DNA of 64,000 nt. Source: an uncultured virus (IMG/VR IMGVR_UViG_3300021400_005359). Lineage: Duplodnaviria > Heunggongvirae > Uroviricota > Caudoviricetes. The stretch is taken from the IMG/VR virus record IMGVR_UViG_3300021400_005359; one strand, 5' to 3'. The notes beneath the pieces are model-generated. The model was not told the origin of the DNA. It was given only the letters and a program-made list of their open reading frames with translations, and did not search any database. A program made the translations under genes and the position numbers. Below are positions 24,583-58,875 of the stretch, piece after piece (positions within the stretch are counted from its first letter, which is position 1; each line of letters begins with the position of its first letter).

Positions 24583-26829
24583 ATGTCCAAAAGAAAAAAA
24601 GAAGTTGAAGAAATTATTGAAAAGATAATAGAAGCTGACTTCAAAGAAACAATGGAACAAAGCTATATAGATTATTCTATAGAAGTTATTACAGAACGTG
24701 CTTTGCCAGATATTAGAGATGGATTAAAACCTGTTCAAAGAAAAAGTATATATACTTTTGAAGAACTTGGAATAACAAAAGATAAGCCATATAAAAAATC
24801 AGCTCGTCTTGTTGGTGAAACTATGGGTAAATATCATCCACACGGAGATTCATCAATCTATGAAGCAATAGTAAGGATGACACAGCCTTTTATGCTTAAC
24901 TATCCATTAATTGATGGTCACGGAAACTGGGGTTCTATAGATGGAGATTCAGCTGCAGCTATGAGATACTCAGAATGTAGATTAGAAAAAATATCAAATG
25001 AACTAATTGATGGTTTAAAAAGCGGAACAGTAAAATTCGTTCCAAACTTTGATGAAGAAGAAACAGAACCTTTAGTTTTACCAGCAAGATTTCCAAATCT
25101 TTTAGTAAATGGAACCGAAGGTATTGCTGTTGGATTGGTTTCTTCCATACCAACTCACAATTTAAGAGATACTATAAATATGATTATTCATTATATGAAA
25201 AAATCATCAAAAAAAGGTGTAAATACATCAGAACTTTTAGACATACTAAAAGGTCCTGATTTCCCAACAGGTGGAATTATTACAAATGTAGAAGAACTCC
25301 TTGATATATACAAGACAGGAGAAGGAAAAATTTCAATAAGAGCAAAACTTGTTGAAGAAAATATAAACGGAAAACCTTGCCTTATTGTTACTGAAATTCC
25401 ATACACTTATTCTGGAAGAAAAGCATCTTTAGTAGATAAAATTTCTAAAGTTATTTTATCAAAGAAAATTGATGAACTTGTAGAGATTAAAGATGAATCT
25501 TCAAAAGAAGGAATTAGAATAGTTATTGAATGTAAAAAAGGAAGTGACCTTGAAAAAGTTGCTAATAAGCTATACAAATTTACTCCTCTTCAAGATTCAA
25601 TGGTTGTAAGATTTAATGGAACAATTGGAAAAGAACTTATTCCTTTCAATTTAATAGACTATTGTAAGTATTTTACAGACTTCCAAGAAGAAATTTATAC
25701 TAAAGAATATATAACTAAAAAATCAAAACTTGACAAAAAGAAAGAAATTTATGAAGGTCTTGTCAAATCAATAGATTTTATAGACACTATAATTGATTTA
25801 ATTAGACACGCAGAAAAAGTTGAATTTGCTAAAAGATGTTTAATGACAGGAAATATAAACAATATTCACTTTGCTTTAAAGAAAAATGAACAAATTGCAA
25901 AAAAATTCAGCTTTACAGAACTTCAAGCTGAAGCAATACTAGAAACTACTCTTAGAAAATTAAATACACTTGAAGTAGAAACACTTATAAATACTTTAAA
26001 AGAAATTGAAAATGAAATTTCTATTTGCAATAAAATTCTTTCATCTAAGGAAGAATTACACAAAGTAATAATCAATAGACTTACAAAAATTGCAAAAGAA
26101 TATGGAAGAGATAGACTTACAGAACTTAAAAATGCAACAATTATCGAATATGAAGAAGAAGTTAAAGTCTACGAAACAAATGTTGTGTACGATAAGTACG
26201 GATATATAAAGATGTTTGATGAAAAAACAATTGGAAAAGTTGATGACGTAACTTTTGAAAATTGTAAGCTAAACAAAAAGACAGATTCAACAGATATATT
26301 ATGGGCATTCTCAAACGAAGGAAATATGTATCAAATAAAACTTTCAAGTCTTCCATTTAATAAACAAAATGATAGAGGAACATTACTTGAAGTAAAAGTT
26401 GGAAAGAAAATTGATGGAGACATCATATATGTAACAACTCAAAATAGTGAAGGTAGGTTAATATTTGTAACTGAAAAAGGATTTATAAAAATAGTTAATA
26501 AGAAAGAATTTATAAGCACAAGAACAATAACAAATTCAACAAAGTTAAGTTCTGATGATAAAATCCTAAAGATAATTGAAATAAATGGTGAAGACTCAAT
26601 AATTGTAACAACAGATACAAATTACTTAAACTTCTCAATATCTGAAATATCGGAATTAAAGAAAACTTCAGTTGGAGTTGTTTCAATAAAAGTACCAGAA
26701 AATGTAAAGATAAAAGACGTTGTAATTTATAAAAAAGAAACAACAGAAGAAATTATATTAAACAATAAACCTTTCAAAGTAGAAGAATTAAAAGTACAAA
26801 AAAGAGGTAGTAAAGGTACTAAATTTTAA
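24583..26829 (+). CDS. gyrA: Type IIA topoisomerase subunit A (GyrA/ParC; no canonical GyrA-box at the CTD start)
   Basis: [21 protein letters not shown], catalytic [15 protein letters not shown], beta-pinwheel repeats. Confidence 0.93.
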
Positions 26830-26904: not shown

Positions 26905-27820
26905 ATAATTAGGCTGAGATTATACCTTCATCCGATAGAACTTTATTTTCCGTATGTTTTAGAAAATTATCCACCTTAAACCCTTTCGGCATCTAAAGTA
27001 TTCTATCATAGCCGCCTTTTTGAATGGGAAGCTTTACCCATCTGCTATATAGTTACTCAACATTTCATATTCCGTCTGCCTTGCGAGCAATAAAGGTTTG
27101 CGGACCACCGTGCAATTCCGTGTTAAAAACTTTAAGTCTTGCGAGACTTATTGTTCTCTTCATTAAGATTACTCTTTGAAGAATTAGGCTATTTTCACTA
27201 TATAGGGACACAGACTTTCGCTGTGTTGTATAAAATAAAAATTTTTTTATCCTTATTATATAAAAAATTTTTATAATATGGAAAACCAATCCAATTTGGA
27301 AAACCAATCCATAAAATAACTAATAATCTCTACAGAAGATGTGCTGTGTCAGTGCCTTCACTTCCTTTTGGGATGCGAAATAGCACACACCTTCAATACC
27401 TTTCCCCTGTTTAGGTACTTAGTTCTTCATAAGAAAAGTGTTTCTCCACCTTCTTAATCTATGACTTGTGCCTTCGAGTAACAAGCTCTCAGACTGCAAA
27501 TCTCCCGATTCGCTTTCGTTTTTTAATTAGTTTGCGTGTCCTATTAGTCTTGCGGACTAAAATTGCATTTCAGCGAGTACGCCCTGATACAACTTATTAG
27601 ACCTAATGTCTAAAACTATTTCCAAGGAGGATTTACCTTCACACCGCCCTGAAAAGCATCCTTTTGAGATGCAAGCCTGTCGGTTTTGCTTGAATTGACT
27701 GCTTTCGCAGCGGTATGTTGTAGAAAATACATACCTTTACTACTCTCACAAATAGCTATCAGCGTCAAGCCGCTACATATCTCTGTCTAAAAGAAGCAAG
27801 CTCCTTTTTTCAAGAGGTGT
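26905..27820 (-). ncRNA. Giant structured ncRNA, GOLLD-like (GOLLD/ROOL class)
   Basis: ~1.1 kb gene-free gap, GC-richer than its flanks; many hairpins with GAAA/GCAA loops on the minus strand; long-range pairings; 3' end GUUGAGUA...GGUAUAAUCUCAGCCU resembling, from memory, the GOLLD 3' domain; own promoter and terminator. Confidence 0.75.
27279..27311. repeat. Tandem direct repeat TGGAAAACCAATCCA x2 (18-bp period) in the AT-rich linker of the large RNA
   Basis: Copies at 27279-27293 and 27297-27311. Confidence 0.85.
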
Positions 27821-46342: not shown

Positions 46343-48823
46343 ATGAAATTTTTATATTTTGGAGATAGACATTACTCAGCAAATAAAATTCCTCCTAATA
46401 GATTAGATGATTTTCTAGAAACTACAAAGAAAAAAGATTTAGAAATTATGGAAATTGCAAAAAACAATGATGTTAAAGCATTTTTGCAACCAGGAGATTT
46501 CGTAAACGAAAAAGATGTAAGAGGTGAAAACGAATTTATTTCTGAGATAGTAAACAGATGGAACTTGTTATCACCAAATAGAATTCCAATTATTGGAGTT
46601 GCTGGAAATCACGATTTAATAGGAAACAGTATAGACACTTTAAATGATACAACTTTAGGACTTTTAAATAATCTCGGACTTATTAATTTAGTAGACAAAG
46701 ACCATCCTATATTTTTTATTACAGAAGATGGGTTAAAAGTTGCAATAACAGGAACAAGTTATCATTTAGAGCAAGATGAAAAAGATTATGTAGATGATTA
46801 TATCGTTAAAGAAAAATTAGGAGATATCCATATTCATATAACTCACGGTATGCTGTCAGACAAAGATATGGGTAAACTCATAAAGCATACTTTAATAGAC
46901 GATATATTAGACACAAAAGCAGACATAACTCTTTGCGGTCACAATCATATAGGCTTTGGAATTAAGCATATTAATGGAAAGTATTTTATAAACATCGGAA
47001 GTGTAACAAGGTACACTGGAGATTTAAAAGAAATTACAAGAAAGCCTTCTATTGCTTTAATTGATATTTCAAAAAGCGGAATTAAAATAGAAGAAATTCC
47101 TTTAAAGTCAGCCCCTGAAGGAATAGATGTTATAGACAGAAGTGTAATAGACGAAGAAAGAAAAAAGAAGGCAGCTATTGCTAAGTTTAGAAAAGAAGCT
47201 GAGTCTATGAAGACGAAAACAAAGCCTGATATGTCAGATTTTGTAGAAAGCATTGCTAAGAACGAAGCTATTCCTGATGAAATCAAAAACGACATATTAG
47301 ACAGACTTGTTTTAAAAGAAAAAGAAAACGCAAGGATTAAGACAGTTGCTACAAAACAAACCATAAAAAAGATTGTTTTAGAAAACTTTCAGTCTCATAA
47401 ATACAATGAATTTGAATTAAATGATGGTTTAAATGTTTTTGTAGGAGAAACAAGACAAGGTAAAAGTGCTATTTTAAGAGCTTTTTACTGGGTATATGAA
47501 AATAAGCCTTCAGGAAAAAGTTTTATTAAAAGAGGAGAGCTTTACGCTAAAGTTTCTATTTATCTATCAGACGGAACAATCATTTCTAGATTTGTAGAAG
47601 AAAAAAGAAATGGAAAAAACGGATACGAAATTACTTATCCAGATGGAACAACTGAAACTGGAAATACAAAGCTTATAGATAAAGTTCAAAAACTTCTTGG
47701 TTTTAACAATTTTAGAATTGACCAAAAATTATCACTTCCTGTAAACTTCTATAAACAAGGAGAAAGTTGGTATTTAATAGGGAATAACCAAACAAATACA
47801 GACAAAGCAAGAATCATAGGAGCTCTTGCAGGAACAAATAATGCTGATGCTATAATAAGAGATTTAGATACAGAAAATACAAGGAAGCTTGTTTCTTATA
47901 AAGCAGCTAAGCAAAATAAAGAAGATATTGAAAAAGAATTAGAAAATTTAGAGTATTTAAAAGATTTAAAAATAAATCTAGATAAAATAGATATTCTCTT
48001 AAAGAATTACGAATTATTAAAAACAAAGAAAGAATCTTTAGAACAAAACAAAGAGAAATATCAAAAATTACAAGAATCTTTAAAAGAAAAAGAAGAAATT
48101 TTAAAAGAACTTGTAAATCTAGATAAGGCAAATAAAAAGGTCTTTGAAGTAAAAGAAAAAGATAGAGAAGAAGAAAGACTTGTTGAAAAGAAAAATCTTT
48201 ATAAGAAAGTAAAAGATTCTATAAATACACAAAACGAAATAATTAGTGCTTTATCAAATATAGAAGATTTAAAGAACAAAACAAACAAGTTAAAAACTTT
48301 AGATACTATTCAAAATTCTTTAAATTTAAATTCTAAGAAAATAAAAGATACAAAAACTTTGCTCAAAGAAAAAGAAGAGATAATAGAAAAAACTAAAGAT
48401 GTTGAATTTTTAGCAGATGCTTGTAAGATGTTAAAAGACGCAGAAATTGAATTAAAAGACCTTAATTTAACTAAAAAGAACATAAGTTCTAACTTAGAAA
48501 AGAAAGCAATCTTAACAAAAAATATCTTGGAAAATGATAAGAAAATAAAGGAAATGGACAAGGTATTGTCTTACAAAGCAAACATAACATATTTAAAAGA
48601 AAAAGAAAAAATGTTAGAATTAATAGAAGATAAGAAAAAAGAGTATGTTCAAGCAAAAGAAAAGAACGAAAAAGAAAATGCAAAGTTAAAGATGCTTGAA
48701 AAATCTTTAGAAGAAAAAAGAGAAAATTATTCTAACATTTTGGAAGAAGTACAGATATGTCCTATTTGTAAAGAACCTTTAAGTAAAGATAAAATTCATA
48801 AAATTGTTTATAAGGAGAAGTAA
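46343..48823 (+). CDS. Fusion of SbcD/Mre11 nuclease to the N-terminal half of SbcC/Rad50, ending at the zinc hook
   Basis: GDRH, GD, GNHD, HG, GHNH phosphoesterase motifs; LENFQSH, Walker A GETRQGKS, coiled coil, terminal CPIC. Confidence 0.88.
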   Translation: MKFLYFGDRHYSANKIPPNRLDDFLETTKKKDLEIMEIAKNNDVKAFLQPGDFVNEKDVRGENEFISEIVNRWNLLSPNRIPIIGVAGNHDLIGNSIDTLNDTTLGLLNNLGLINLVDKDHPIFFITEDGLKVAITGTSYHLEQDEKDYVDDYIVKEKLGDIHIHITHGMLSDKDMGKLIKHTLIDDILDTKADITLCGHNHIGFGIKHINGKYFINIGSVTRYTGDLKEITRKPSIALIDISKSGIKIEEIPLKSAPEGIDVIDRSVIDEERKKKAAIAKFRKEAESMKTKTKPDMSDFVESIAKNEAIPDEIKNDILDRLVLKEKENARIKTVATKQTIKKIVLENFQSHKYNEFELNDGLNVFVGETRQGKSAILRAFYWVYENKPSGKSFIKRGELYAKVSIYLSDGTIISRFVEEKRNGKNGYEITYPDGTTETGNTKLIDKVQKLLGFNNFRIDQKLSLPVNFYKQGESWYLIGNNQTNTDKARIIGALAGTNNADAIIRDLDTENTRKLVSYKAAKQNKEDIEKELENLEYLKDLKINLDKIDILLKNYELLKTKKESLEQNKEKYQKLQESLKEKEEILKELVNLDKANKKVFEVKEKDREEERLVEKKNLYKKVKDSINTQNEIISALSNIEDLKNKTNKLKTLDTIQNSLNLNSKKIKDTKTLLKEKEEIIEKTKDVEFLADACKMLKDAEIELKDLNLTKKNISSNLEKKAILTKNILENDKKIKEMDKVLSYKANITYLKEKEKMLELIEDKKKEYVQAKEKNEKENAKLKMLEKSLEEKRENYSNILEEVQICPICKEPLSKDKIHKIVYKEK

Positions 48824-48827
48824 TTAT

Positions 48828-49165
48828 GTCAATAACCCCAACCTAAGCTAACGCTTAGAGGTTGGAGCTTGTAAAAGCTCATATTGACTAGCTTAAGGTC
48901 TTTGGGACCTACGTTATTTACGTTTTGAATAGCAGTAATTAATTTTATTTATTACTTACTATTCAAATTGAAAAGTAAATTATATATATACAGTATAATT
49001 GCTTTTCATTATCTCACCCACTGGCGTTTGACCTAACTGGTGGCTCTGAGCAGGCTCTGTAAACAGTTCTGTGAGGTAGGAACAGTCAACCTGATGTGTT
49101 GGTTTACTAACAAGCGTTTATAACTTTGGCGAAGGTCAACTTACTGGAGATTTTTTCTCTAGCGT
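48828..49165 (+). ncRNA. HEARO / omega-RNA scaffold
   Basis: Nested hairpins GTCAATA/TATTGAC, CCAACCT/AGGTTGG, GAGCTT-GTAA-AAGCTC; long-range TTGACCT (49028-34) with AGGTCAA (49133-39). Confidence 0.8.
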
Positions 49166-49284
49166 TATGTATTAATTTACATTATTACCAAAAAATCATA
49201 TTTAATAGAAAGGAGTAATGGCAATTCCTCTCCGACTTAAATACTTTGTAATTTGAAGTCTGAGTACCCTTGCCAGTTTTTAAA
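48828..49284 (+). mobile_element. Non-autonomous IS200/IS605 (IscB-type) element carrying a HEARO/omega-RNA but no iscB
   Basis: Left end GTCAATAACCCC...TATTGACTAGC; CTACGTT; CTCTGTAAACAGTTCTGTGAGGTAGGAACAGT; GGCGAAGG; right-end hairpin GCAATTCCTCTCCGACTT...AAGTCTGAGTACCCTTGC. Confidence 0.85.
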
Positions 49285-49557
49285 ATGGAATTAACAAAAG
49301 AACAGAGAACTAAAAAGATAGAAGATGCAGAAAAGATGGTAAGAGAGGCTGAAGCTTTAAGAACAGCTTCTCTTACAATGAAAGCTCAATATGAGAAAGA
49401 TTTAAAAGCTTGTGAAGAAGAGCTTGCAAAGCTTGGAACAACTCCAGAAGAAGTTGATAATAAAATTAAAGAAGTTTCTGAAGAAATGGATACTCTTTTG
49501 AAAGAAGTAGAAGAGAACTTACCTATAGATTTATTAAGAAAAATGGGAAAGATTTAA
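49285..49557 (+). CDS. Small coiled-coil protein of the split-Rad50 operon
   Basis: MELTKEQ...LG.TPEE...I; ATG sits immediately after the IS right end. Confidence 0.75.
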   Translation: MELTKEQRTKKIEDAEKMVREAEALRTASLTMKAQYEKDLKACEEELAKLGTTPEEVDNKIKEVSEEMDTLLKEVEENLPIDLLRKMGKI

Positions 49558-49560
49558 AAT

Positions 49561-49983
49561 ATGTCTAGAACAAAAGATTTTAAAAAGATGAAAGAACTCA
49601 AAAAAGAAATAAATACATATTCAAAAGGAAAGAAGGAACAAGACCAAAAGATTTTAGATAGTATGAATTATAGGAAAGCTTTAGCTACAACAAGTAAATG
49701 GGTAATTCTAATATCTGTAATCCTTTGTATTGTTGCTTTAATTGTTATGTGGTTTATTACAAAAACAAATATCCTTGCCTTAAAAGAAGGAACTCTTAAA
49801 GGATATTTAAATGTAGTTGATTATGTATTTTTATTCTTTTTATTTGATGTCGGTCTTAGCTTTACAATCACTGGTTTTAGAAAAATTCCTAAAGCCTATA
49901 AGAAAAAGACAATTATTACAGGTATAGAAGTTATTGTTTTTACAATATTTCTAGGTCTTATATTTACAGGAGTTTTGTTATGA
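49561..49983 (+). CDS. Three-TM membrane protein
   Basis: Three hydrophobic segments; tightly packed in the operon. Confidence 0.7.
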   Translation: MSRTKDFKKMKELKKEINTYSKGKKEQDQKILDSMNYRKALATTSKWVILISVILCIVALIVMWFITKTNILALKEGTLKGYLNVVDYVFLFFLFDVGLSFTITGFRKIPKAYKKKTIITGIEVIVFTIFLGLIFTGVLL

Positions 49984-50642
49984 ATATAGAAGAATTAAAC
50001 AATTTATATCAAGAACTAAATAAAGAATATATAGAAAAAACAGCTATTCAAAAGAAACTAAAGAAAGACTTAGAAGACGAAACAGAAAAAATAAAATCTT
50101 TTGAAAAAGACATTGAAATCTATGAAAAGAAAAAGAAATTAATTCAAGATGCTGCATCAGAAGCTAGAAAGTTCTCAAAAGAAATGTTTGAAGAAACATC
50201 TACAGAAGCTCTCCAAACAATTCTTGGAGATAATTTATCTGTAGAAATAAAGCTTGGAGAAACAGCAGGAACTCAAACTGCAGACTTTTTAGTAAAAGCA
50301 AAATATGAAGATGACAGCGAAGTAATTGTTGACCCAACGAATGAAGATGGTGGAGGAGTAGCAGATATTATTGCTCTTGCTTCTCTTATAAGTATGAATT
50401 CATTCGTTTCAGATGAGAATTCAGCACCACTCGTTCTTGATGAACCAACTAAATATGTTTCAAAAGGAAATGCAAAAGATGTAGCTCTTTTCCTTTCAGA
50501 AACAAGTAAAAATATGGGTAAACAAATTATAATGGTAACACACGATGGAGTTTCAAAAGATTATGCTGATAAAGCATATAGAATAGCTCTTGATGAAAAT
50601 GGAAATAGTAAATCAGAAGATATAACAAAAAAAGAGGCTTAA
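49980..50642 (+). CDS. C-terminal half of an SbcC/Rad50-like ABC ATPase
   Basis: Coiled coil, signature-like EDGGG, Walker B LVLDEP, H-loop VTHD; no Walker A. Confidence 0.85.
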   Translation: MNIEELNNLYQELNKEYIEKTAIQKKLKKDLEDETEKIKSFEKDIEIYEKKKKLIQDAASEARKFSKEMFEETSTEALQTILGDNLSVEIKLGETAGTQTADFLVKAKYEDDSEVIVDPTNEDGGGVADIIALASLISMNSFVSDENSAPLVLDEPTKYVSKGNAKDVALFLSETSKNMGKQIIMVTHDGVSKDYADKAYRIALDENGNSKSEDITKKEA

Positions 50643-57474: not shown

Positions 57475-58875
57475 TCATTTTTTAATTTCCTTAAGCCACT
57501 TATCAATAGCTTTCTTAGGAATTCCATCAACATCTTCGTTAAAAGCTTTTTTAGCTTCAATTAGATTATAGTTTTCATCTATATCAATAGTTATAAAAGA
57601 TTTATTGGGACTTTCTTTTTCTCTTAAAAATACAACTCTAGACAATTCATTAATAATTCTATCAGAATAACTCCCTACGCAGTGATGAAGGTCTGTTCCT
57701 TCCTCAACTATATCTTTAATACAAGTAGGAACTTTAAATATGTACTCTTTTATAATATCTTCTCCCTTTTCATTTTTATCTTTTACAGTAATAAGTTTCT
57801 CAACATTTTTATACTTGTTGACACTCGCCATAAATTTCTTTTCAAGCTCAGGAGAATCTACAGATAAAGATAAAACATTCTTAGACAAAATATCGTGTTG
57901 TCTTTTAAGCTGAGAAGGATATTTATCTATTTTTACTCCATACTTATCTGCCATCTTAATATAATCAGCAAGAAACATAGCTTCGTTATAAGGAAAACCA
58001 AAAGGCGGATTTTCTGTAAAATACAAATTCTGTCTAAGAAGATAATTTAAAAGGTCTGTAATCTTATAGCCTCTTTCTAGACAATCACTAATATCTGATA
58101 AAAACTTCTTCATAACGGCTGGTCTATCTTTAACAGGAACATTGTGTTTAAAAATTATTGATAATTTATCAATAAAACTAAAAATAATCTTTAAACTATT
58201 TCCATCTATCTTTTTAGATATATTCTTTATCTCAGAAATACTTCCTTCAAGGTCTAAATCCTTAATAATAGGAAGAGCAAATTTAGGAATACCAAGAGAA
58301 ACACTAAGTTTAGAAGCTTCTTCCATAGAAAAACTCTTAGAAGACAAATTTGCCTCTAAAATAGAACAGGAATCACTTGTAATAATTTTTTCATATTCCA
58401 AATAATTAAAAACAAGCAAATTATAAAAATTTGTCATAGTAGTTCTATACAAAACACCTGTATCTATATGGACTTTTAAATACTTTGGAGTATCTTTTAG
58501 ATGATTCGAAATATTTTCATTAAGAGAAATAATCTTTTCAAAAAACTTGAAAAACTCATAATAAAAATTATCGTCACCTTTTATAAAATCATCTGAAATA
58601 AATTTATCTCCAAAACCCTTAAAAGTCTTTTTATTAAAAGAAACTCTCTTACTGAATTTTTCAGTAAATACAGCCTCTTCTTCATTTAAATCAAAAATAA
58701 TATGACCTAAATCTATATGATAAAAATCTTCATCTTCACTAAATTTACAAATATCCAAAACATCTTGAGGAATAGAAGAAACATCTTTAATTGGAATTTT
58801 TACTGTATCAACAGAAAAAGGATATTTATTTGAGGAATAAAATTTTCCATTATAATTTACTTTTAATAATTTCAA
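57475..58875 (-). CDS. PcfJ-like domain protein
   Basis: DYIKMA...YPSQLKRQHD...EEG..LHHCVGSY...FLR....P..SFITI. Confidence 0.85.
   Translation of the reverse strand: MKLLKVNYNGKFYSSNKYPFSVDTVKIPIKDVSSIPQDVLDICKFSEDEDFYHIDLGHIIFDLNEEEAVFTEKFSKRVSFNKKTFKGFGDKFISDDFIKGDDNFYYEFFKFFEKIISLNENISNHLKDTPKYLKVHIDTGVLYRTTMTNFYNLLVFNYLEYEKIITSDSCSILEANLSSKSFSMEEASKLSVSLGIPKFALPIIKDLDLEGSISEIKNISKKIDGNSLKIIFSFIDKLSIIFKHNVPVKDRPAVMKKFLSDISDCLERGYKITDLLNYLLRQNLYFTENPPFGFPYNEAMFLADYIKMADKYGVKIDKYPSQLKRQHDILSKNVLSLSVDSPELEKKFMASVNKYKNVEKLITVKDKNEKGEDIIKEYIFKVPTCIKDIVEEGTDLHHCVGSYSDRIINELSRVVFLREKESPNKSFITIDIDENYNLIEAKKAFNEDVDGIPKKAIDKWLKEIKK

Follow-up and report, generated by a model that had tools for sequence, protein, structure and literature searches.

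A protein-less element, probably of the ISC type, inserted between a Shine-Dalgarno sequence and its start codon

ISC transposons have been described as elements with 5'-GTCA termini that insert without target duplication at GT|GR or N|ATGA, and they are thought to be mobilised in trans by Y1 transposases (passages on termini and targets in Kapitonov, Makarova, and Koonin 2016; PMC4810608). In Geobacillus stearothermophilus, according to the sections of Meers et al. (2023; 10.1101/2023.03.14.532601) that deal with this system, GstIscB and TnpA share a target-adjacent motif (TAM), TTCAT, located 5' of the left end, which on the omega-RNA strand appears as ATGAA following the element; cleavage of the donor joint, directed by the guide, restores the element, and IscB elements preferentially share the orientation of the gene upstream. 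[quoted passage not shown] Two further comparators are OgeuIscB, the TAM of which is given as NWRRNA in the pertinent part of PMC12660989, and the IStrons of Clostridia, which PMC13565253, where it introduces them, presents as chimeras of a group I intron and IS605. Here we describe an element found in 64,000 nucleotides of DNA from an uncultured virus (IMG/VR record IMGVR_UViG_3300021400_005359; Caudoviricetes). This whole stretch is referred to below as the window; all positions follow its numbering, with the element on the + strand. The best explanation overall is that the element, at 48828–49284, is a non-autonomous, protein-less, PATE-type derivative of an ISC transposon of the IS200/IS605 superfamily, and we consider this explanation very probable. 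A sequence-only reading of the window had already proposed an IscB omega-RNA mini-transposon without iscB at this place, and the coordinates it gave all proved to be correct.

The element is a discrete insertion that splits the Shine-Dalgarno (SD) sequence from the ATG of a 90-aa gene. The SD sequence AAGGAG (48812–48817, +), recognised from the sequence and from an empty-allele contig, lies just before the stop codon (48821–48823, +) of an 826-aa open reading frame (ORF). The element (48828–49284, +), recognised from a 457-nt skip in that contig, from contig depth, and from the lack of ORFs longer than 30 codons, starts with GTCAATAACC at 48828 and ends with ...GTTTTTAAA at 49284. It is followed directly by the gene for the 90-aa protein (49285–49557, +), the first six letters of which, ATGGAA (49285–49290, +; TTCCAT on the canonical top strand), occupy the target or TAM position at the junction. 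Thus, the element begins with 5'-GTCA, ATGG stands immediately 3' of it, and no target duplication is present. The distance from AAGGAG to the ATG is 467 nt with the element, as compared with 10 nt in the empty allele.

Runs that contain the window sequence come from 12 studies and represent gut metagenomes, of ruminants among others; for alignment to positions 48300–49800, contigs were taken from two DNA runs (X3 and X5) and two RNA runs (X15 and X16). One X16 contig, 209 nt long and with a depth of 3.1, runs from 48661 to 48827 and continues at 49285–49326, skipping exactly 457 nt. The skip has the ends GT..AA, no letter at the joint is ambiguous, and the contig differs from the window by one mismatch over 48661–48827 and by none over 49285–49326; no differing letters are listed within 48812–48827, the putative guide segment considered below. 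This contig has the 48827/49285 junction expected of an empty allele, makes both boundaries of the element exact, and shows that removal of 48828–49284 restores an SD sequence, 10 nt, and an ATG, as the sequence-only reading had claimed; both the sequence and this empty allele make it evident that the element parts AAGGAG from the next gene's ATG. The left edge of the skip falls on the base at which the HEARO model begins, a position obtained by an independent computation. In X3, another contig aligns from 49285 on and carries unlike sequence before this point, ending with the SD sequence AAGGAGG and 8 nt, and represents a divergent relative, likewise free of the element. Both X3 and X5 contain one contig that crosses the left junction (48300–48893) and one that crosses the right junction (49253–49800), at about 98% identity; therefore, the filled allele is present in at least two further studies.

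The identity of the element is indicated, with high confidence in our opinion, as that of an ISC-type omega-RNA PATE. The covariance model of Rfam family HEARO (RF02033, the IscB omega RNA; model length 211, gathering score 83 bits) matches the first 317 nt of the element (48828–49144, +) over positions 1–211 of 211, with 77.5 bits and an E value of 9.4e-16 in a scan of the 901 nt at 48600–49500, so that the HEARO match anticipated for the element was found over the full model. In canonical IS605 orientation this scaffold constitutes the transposon "right end". The permissive scan of 48600–49500 returned four matches up to E 10, and the three besides HEARO, all at E >1, are noise. The gathering scan of the whole window does not list HEARO, as 77.5 bits stands against a threshold of 83; the score falls short because a 90-nt insert interrupts the scaffold. 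This AT-rich, copy-specific insert (48918–49007, +) occupies a scaffold junction (between positions 88 and 89 of the model) and folds as two hairpins. It is absent in two sister copies located in metagenome contigs (L003 and L004) and is skipped by four sister contigs, and contig depth is lower over it than over the remaining element; sister copies carry 4–7 other letters at its site, and the omega RNA seems to vary or expand at this junction. The L004 copy, which has no insert, passes the gathering threshold with 115.8 bits.

The region folds better than shuffled sequences on either strand (z −3.8 and −4.5). Of the two end hairpins that had been proposed, the one at the 5' end stands, folding strongly as DNA or as RNA (z −4.5 to −5.2), and the one at the 3' end, with z about −1.2, resembles shuffles. 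When 33 base pairs predicted in the first 90 nt were compared in three copies, three had changed on both sides with pairing kept, one showed a change on one side, and one was broken; with only three sequences, such covariation is compatible with RNA pairing and with single-stranded DNA hairpins alike. Immediately 3' of the Rfam model, two small hairpins (49144–49183, +) form the tail of the omega-RNA module, where a terminator-like hairpin at 49144–49162 has a poor T tail.

The second line of evidence concerns the missing protein genes. The longest ORF inside the element has 30 codons, which bears out the claim that iscB is missing, and no iscB or isrB ORF adjoins the scaffold; on that count, the full-model HEARO match belongs to a protein-less derivative of IscB type. 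None of the 57 window ORFs scanned against Pfam contains RRXRR, HNH, or Y1_Tnp; these comprise most ORFs of at least 100 aa, the 90-aa gene, and one open-ended ORF, six overlapping shadow ORFs having been left out from the 61 listed. The search for iscB, tnpA, and sister copies thus came back empty for proteins in the window and positive for sister copies (L003, L004, and X15). The terminal module at the other end (49191–49284, +), the "left end" in canonical orientation, is shared by other family members and contains an imperfect hairpin and an internal AAGGAG (49210–49215) followed by an ATG at 49218, which opens only 12 codons before TGA, in agreement with the sequence-only reading.

The place of the lost segment can be read from sister contigs. 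Those in X3 and X5 diverge from the window after 49183 and continue with an SD sequence and ATGATG, which may be the start of iscB. Five X5 contigs match only 49191–49282 and, before 49191, carry an SD sequence on the minus strand that may belong to a gene, for example tnpA, with the canonical orientation of the left end; 30 letters of each contig, in both sets, were seen. Divergence after 49183 in one set and before 49191 in the other therefore puts the deletion joint of the mini-element at 49184–49190.

Promoter-like sites were also noted in this region, where they number eight as compared with 3.5 in shuffles, an excess too weak to use. A minus-strand site at 49224–49195 (10/12 matches) lies in the left-end module, reads into the element, and has the position of a tnpA promoter; another at 48832–48803 (10/12) takes its −35 TTGACA from the first bases of the element and reads outwards. 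On the + strand, the scan found no promoter-like site inside the element and one just upstream of it, at 48766–48795 (9/12 matches).

The third line of evidence is that the element belongs to a family present in many copies in sheep and cattle gut metagenomes. Summed contig depth within the element reaches 186 in X3 and 266 in X5, with about 9–15 in the flanks; element depth is thus up to about 19 times flank depth in the DNA contigs, and contigs of the X3/X5 alignment break within the element. Exact-pattern scans led to two metagenome loci. The L003 copy is truncated where its contig ends; it lies behind genes unrelated to the 826-aa ORF and therefore represents an independent site. Positions 1–2064 of L004 correspond to window 51068–49005 at 99.95% identity, the first approximately 100 nt of its element being only 90% identical to the window (L004 1925–2230, minus strand, versus window 48824–49005), and its left flank, with genes for DUF6033, HSP20, and a radical-SAM activase, is unrelated to the window. 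Either two copies have recombined, or the repeat led to a chimeric assembly, and of these explanations of the flank switch we lean towards the chimera. A contig of RNA library X15 is a further copy, with a different left flank and no 90-nt insert. L003, the left part of L004, and the X15 contig are independent copies in other flanking sequence.

No sister copy was found by exact-pattern scans of viral_contigs and genome_contigs, no near-identity DNA match of 48000–50100 in phages or plasmids, and no second copy in the window by BLAST. A distant DNA search with the element returned only 57 nt at 82.5% in a Nostoc plasmid and 63 nt at 80% in a Staphylococcus phage. The former (NZ_CP024789.1, 83502–83558, Nostoc flagelliforme) matches the 5' stem of the element in a place where no gene is listed, and it is probably another HEARO copy. 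A 19-mer match in viral_contigs (L005) was rejected as a chance match within a 984-aa ORF that contains no HEARO.

The element shares with HEARO RF02033 a full-model match, a GUCAA start at the transposon boundary, and compensatory changes between copies; it differs in having no adjacent HNH/RuvC (iscB) ORF and in the 90-nt insert. Features in common with ISC transposons, as their termini and targets are characterised in PMC4810608, are 5'-GTCA, insertion without duplication directly upstream of ATGR, and the proposed mobilisation by a Y1 transposase in trans; subterminal hairpins may be a further likeness, the imperfect one at the 3' end folding no better than shuffles. Unlike those transposons, it has the target ATGG rather than ATGA and carries no IscB. 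With the G. stearothermophilus PATEs, to the extent that they are described in the sections cited from 10.1101/2023.03.14.532601, it shares the lack of proteins, IS605-type ends, a need for a nuclease supplied in trans, and co-orientation with the upstream gene, and the GstIscB TAM, written there in a form equivalent to ATGAA, is one letter away from ATGGA of the window. The host and the replicon are different, the latter being here a low-GC rumen contig that resembles a conjugative megaplasmid.

The sequence-only reading had compared the target with the TAM of OgeuIscB. Indeed ATGGAA fits NWRRNA as quoted from PMC12660989, a weak likeness, as the pattern fits 10,622 of about 127,150 window positions (8.4%). 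The N|ATGA target and the TTCAT motif are better comparators for the window target than NWRRNA.

That reading had further proposed an element that targets start codons. The element is located at a start codon, as stated; special targeting is not needed to account for this, since the ATGR motif and purifying selection together suffice. With 65 genes roughly defined, the 530 ATGRA sites of the window fall in gene interiors (495), at gene starts (19), and at other intergenic positions (16); if insertions within genes are lost, about half of the surviving ones are expected at start codons. Left flanks with an SD-like motif were seen in three of the four independent copies: AAGGAG 10 nt from the insertion point in the window, AAGGAGG at 8 nt in L004, and AGGGGTG at 6 nt in L003, the X15 copy having none. 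Such a motif stands upstream of 46 of 524 ATGRA sites in the window (8.8%). It should be noted that the list of SD patterns was written partly after the left flanks had been seen.

The proposed homing of the element onto empty alleles in trans is an application of the published model to this site, and the geometry fits. In the explanation preferred here, iscB has been lost by internal deletion between 49183 and 49191, leaving the full omega-RNA module and the other transposon end. A Y1 TnpA acting in trans would have inserted the element on the bottom strand, 3' of TTCCAT. Omega RNA would arise by read-through from the upstream gene, and its 5' guide would be the last ~16 nt of the flank, that is, the putative segment 48812–48827 (+) located 5' of the scaffold, for which a length of 16 nt was assumed. 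Its placement follows from the HEARO start and from the published architecture of IscB systems. IscB supplied in trans could then cut the empty allele, where the guide match is followed by ATGGAA, and the element would be copied back by recombination. The filled allele would be spared, and self-cleavage avoided, since the TAM position next to the guide-matching flank holds GTCAAT, a sequence outside the NWRRNA pattern. In the window, the guide followed by NWRRNA, with up to three mismatches, matched only its own locus and 57746–57767 (three mismatches; 0.34 expected by chance), which gives no evidence of other targets of the predicted guide in the window.

The upstream gene (46343–48823, +) encodes an Mre11-like phosphoesterase fused to the N-terminal Rad50/SbcC ATPase half, as judged by Pfam (Metallophos 1–203, AAA_23 343–550) and PHROG (16465, "exonuclease", 340–819); the 826-aa protein ends 19 residues past a hook-like CPIC (CxxC) motif. 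The gene has the same orientation as the element and probably supplies the transcription that reads through into it; no terminator-like site was found between its stop codon and the element. Relatives found by tblastn, all below 60% identity, come from 16 plasmid and 6 phage records, among them large Bacillota plasmids, and none was confirmed in viral_contigs or genome_contigs. Plasmid pJFP838A of C. perfringens has a fused gene 36% identical to this one, followed after 15 nt by a gene for a 96-aa protein homologous to the 90-aa coiled-coil protein of the window (27% identity, E 2e-10). Thus the tight pair is ancestral, and the 461-nt spacer of the window is exceptional.

The consequences for translation follow from this arrangement. 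The sequence before the ATG at 49285 reads ...CCCTTGCCAGTTTTTAAA, with no SD-like motif in the preceding 20 nt. At the left junction, AT of the flank and the first G of the element create a new ATG 8 nt after AAGGAG, which opens an ORF of six codons (48826–48846, +) entering the first omega-RNA stem. Translation of the 90-aa gene should therefore fall, because its SD sequence now serves the junction ORF. It is reasonable to infer that this gene is translated less, and perhaps coupled genes behind it too. In the left-junction contigs of X3 and X5, base 48828 is T rather than G; this change abolishes the junction ATG and removes both the conserved terminal G and the first scaffold base pair, and it may be a sign of decay of the element copy. 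In L003 (162–136, minus strand) the flank AT and the element G likewise form a new ATG at SD distance, with an ORF of eight codons, and the upstream 418-aa ORF runs two codons into the element before TAA.

Several observations weigh against the explanation we prefer. The search that found neither iscB nor tnpA covered the 64-kb window only. The window copy scores 5.5 bits under the Rfam gathering score, and a scaffold with a 90-nt insert that is missing in most sister copies may be impaired. The imperfect hairpin of the 3' end folds no better than shuffles (z −1.2 to −1.3). The exact empty allele is a single contig of low depth (3.1) from an RNA library, with none from a DNA run, and no contig of X15 or X16 was shown to carry omega RNA of the window locus itself; contigs of these two runs do not cover 49116–49268, and X16 has almost none on the element, so that they are uninformative on expression and splicing. 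The TAM is taken from one site, as L004 shares the right flank by descent. That the window copy still yields a working guide seems to us somewhat less likely than not, because of the 90-nt insert, a first base that varies between populations, and the lack of any iscB in view.

These doubts lead to an interpretation with the same ISC-type PATE origin, in which the copy is an immobile fossil without usable guide, a tolerated insertion that lowers the expression of a dispensable gene. It is quite possible, and we lean only slightly against it. The interrupted scaffold, with its score under the gathering threshold, speaks in its favour, as do the T at the first base in X3 and X5, which touches both the cleavage site and the first base pair, and the absence of iscB and tnpA from the window; a filled locus found in at least two further studies with about 98% flank identity suggests long residence. 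However, every helix of the HEARO model can still be aligned, and the junction that holds the insert varies in sister copies too. The family is, moreover, abundant, with contigs in RNA library X15, and the existence of a population with the empty allele means that gain or loss was recent. The same stability at one site in several populations would be expected if the structured RNA had been co-opted as a cis-regulatory 5' untranslated region or a small RNA for the downstream operon. Expression would then have to depend on the element RNA, since SD sequence and ATG are apart, and the minus-strand promoter-like sites at both ends could be counted for such a role. We regard this as very unlikely: copies are found at unrelated loci with unrelated neighbours, both the empty allele and the distant pJFP838A homologue have a plain SD-ATG arrangement, and no new SD sequence has appeared near 49285.

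The X16 joint might also be viewed as that of a spliced mRNA, with the element removed as RNA like an intron, given that the exact joint is known solely from a contig of a metatranscriptome and that IStrons are known in Clostridia (as introduced in PMC13565253). This account is scarcely credible in view of the permissive scan, in which no intron family is among the four matches, and of boundaries that are ISC-like (5'-GTCA, N|ATGG) rather than those of a group I or group II intron. DNA can be present in RNA libraries, and the divergent X3 contig, which is DNA, is likewise without the element at 49285. As regards the IStrons themselves, in the account of PMC13565253 cited above, the likeness lies in a mobile IS605-type element within a transcription unit that could be neutralised; the window element differs in having no intron match and in its nuclease type, which is IscB, not TnpB. 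A repeat wrongly joined into the window contig would be in keeping with a multi-copy family that breaks assemblies and with the flank switch inside the L004 element. The chance of such an artefact appears negligible: both junctions occur in independent X3 and X5 contigs, and the flanks are contiguous in the empty allele and syntenic in pJFP838A. The protein-less ISC/IS605-type PATE thus remains the explanation adopted here.

The 90-aa coiled-coil gene is the first of three over 49285–50642. The second encodes 140 aa that include a hydrophobic stretch, and the third an ATPase of 220 aa (PHROG 15167) that weakly resembles the C-terminal part of SbcC. Together with these downstream genes, the Mre11-Rad50N ORF may represent a split Rad50; large Bacillota plasmids carry the fused gene as well.

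As a whole, the window appears to derive from a large conjugative megaplasmid, the host of which would be a low-GC (28%) Bacillota of the rumen; searches of phage, plasmid, viral, and species-genome collections did not find it there. Its genes include VirB4/TraG-type ATPases, PrgI, a type IV secretion system pilin, Replic_Relax, PcfJ, and TraX, as well as gyrase A and B, CCA-adding enzyme, a sigma factor, ClpX, PhoH, NucS, and PARG. The only family listed by the gathering scan of the whole window is GOLLD RNA (RF02032), present at full length at 26911–27395 on the minus strand (190.8 bits, E 3.4e-52), directly downstream of a gyrA-like gene (24583–26829). ARAGORN found no tRNA gene in the window.

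No new mechanism emerges from the locus; PATEs with omega RNA and no protein, like the N|ATGA target and homing directed by a guide, are already in the literature. A bolder and, in our judgement, improbable view is that a rumen PATE family is preferentially retained at junctions between SD sequence and ATG of co-oriented operon genes, taking over operon transcripts to draw its guides from SD-leader sequence and forming a reversible translational off-switch that IscB re-homes on conjugative megaplasmids. If this were true, excision by TnpA would restore the SD sequence, 10 nt, and the ATG exactly and without a scar, and IscB in trans would re-home the element into empty alleles of conjugative megaplasmids. 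The significance of the locus in the terms preferred here is that it offers a natural IS605/ISC derivative reduced to its omega RNA, with filled and empty alleles in public data that are exact to the base. It is also an example of how the ATGR target motif brings such elements to lie after a ribosome-binding site and before the start codon, and it points to an abundant, undescribed family of IscB-type elements in ruminant gut microbiomes.

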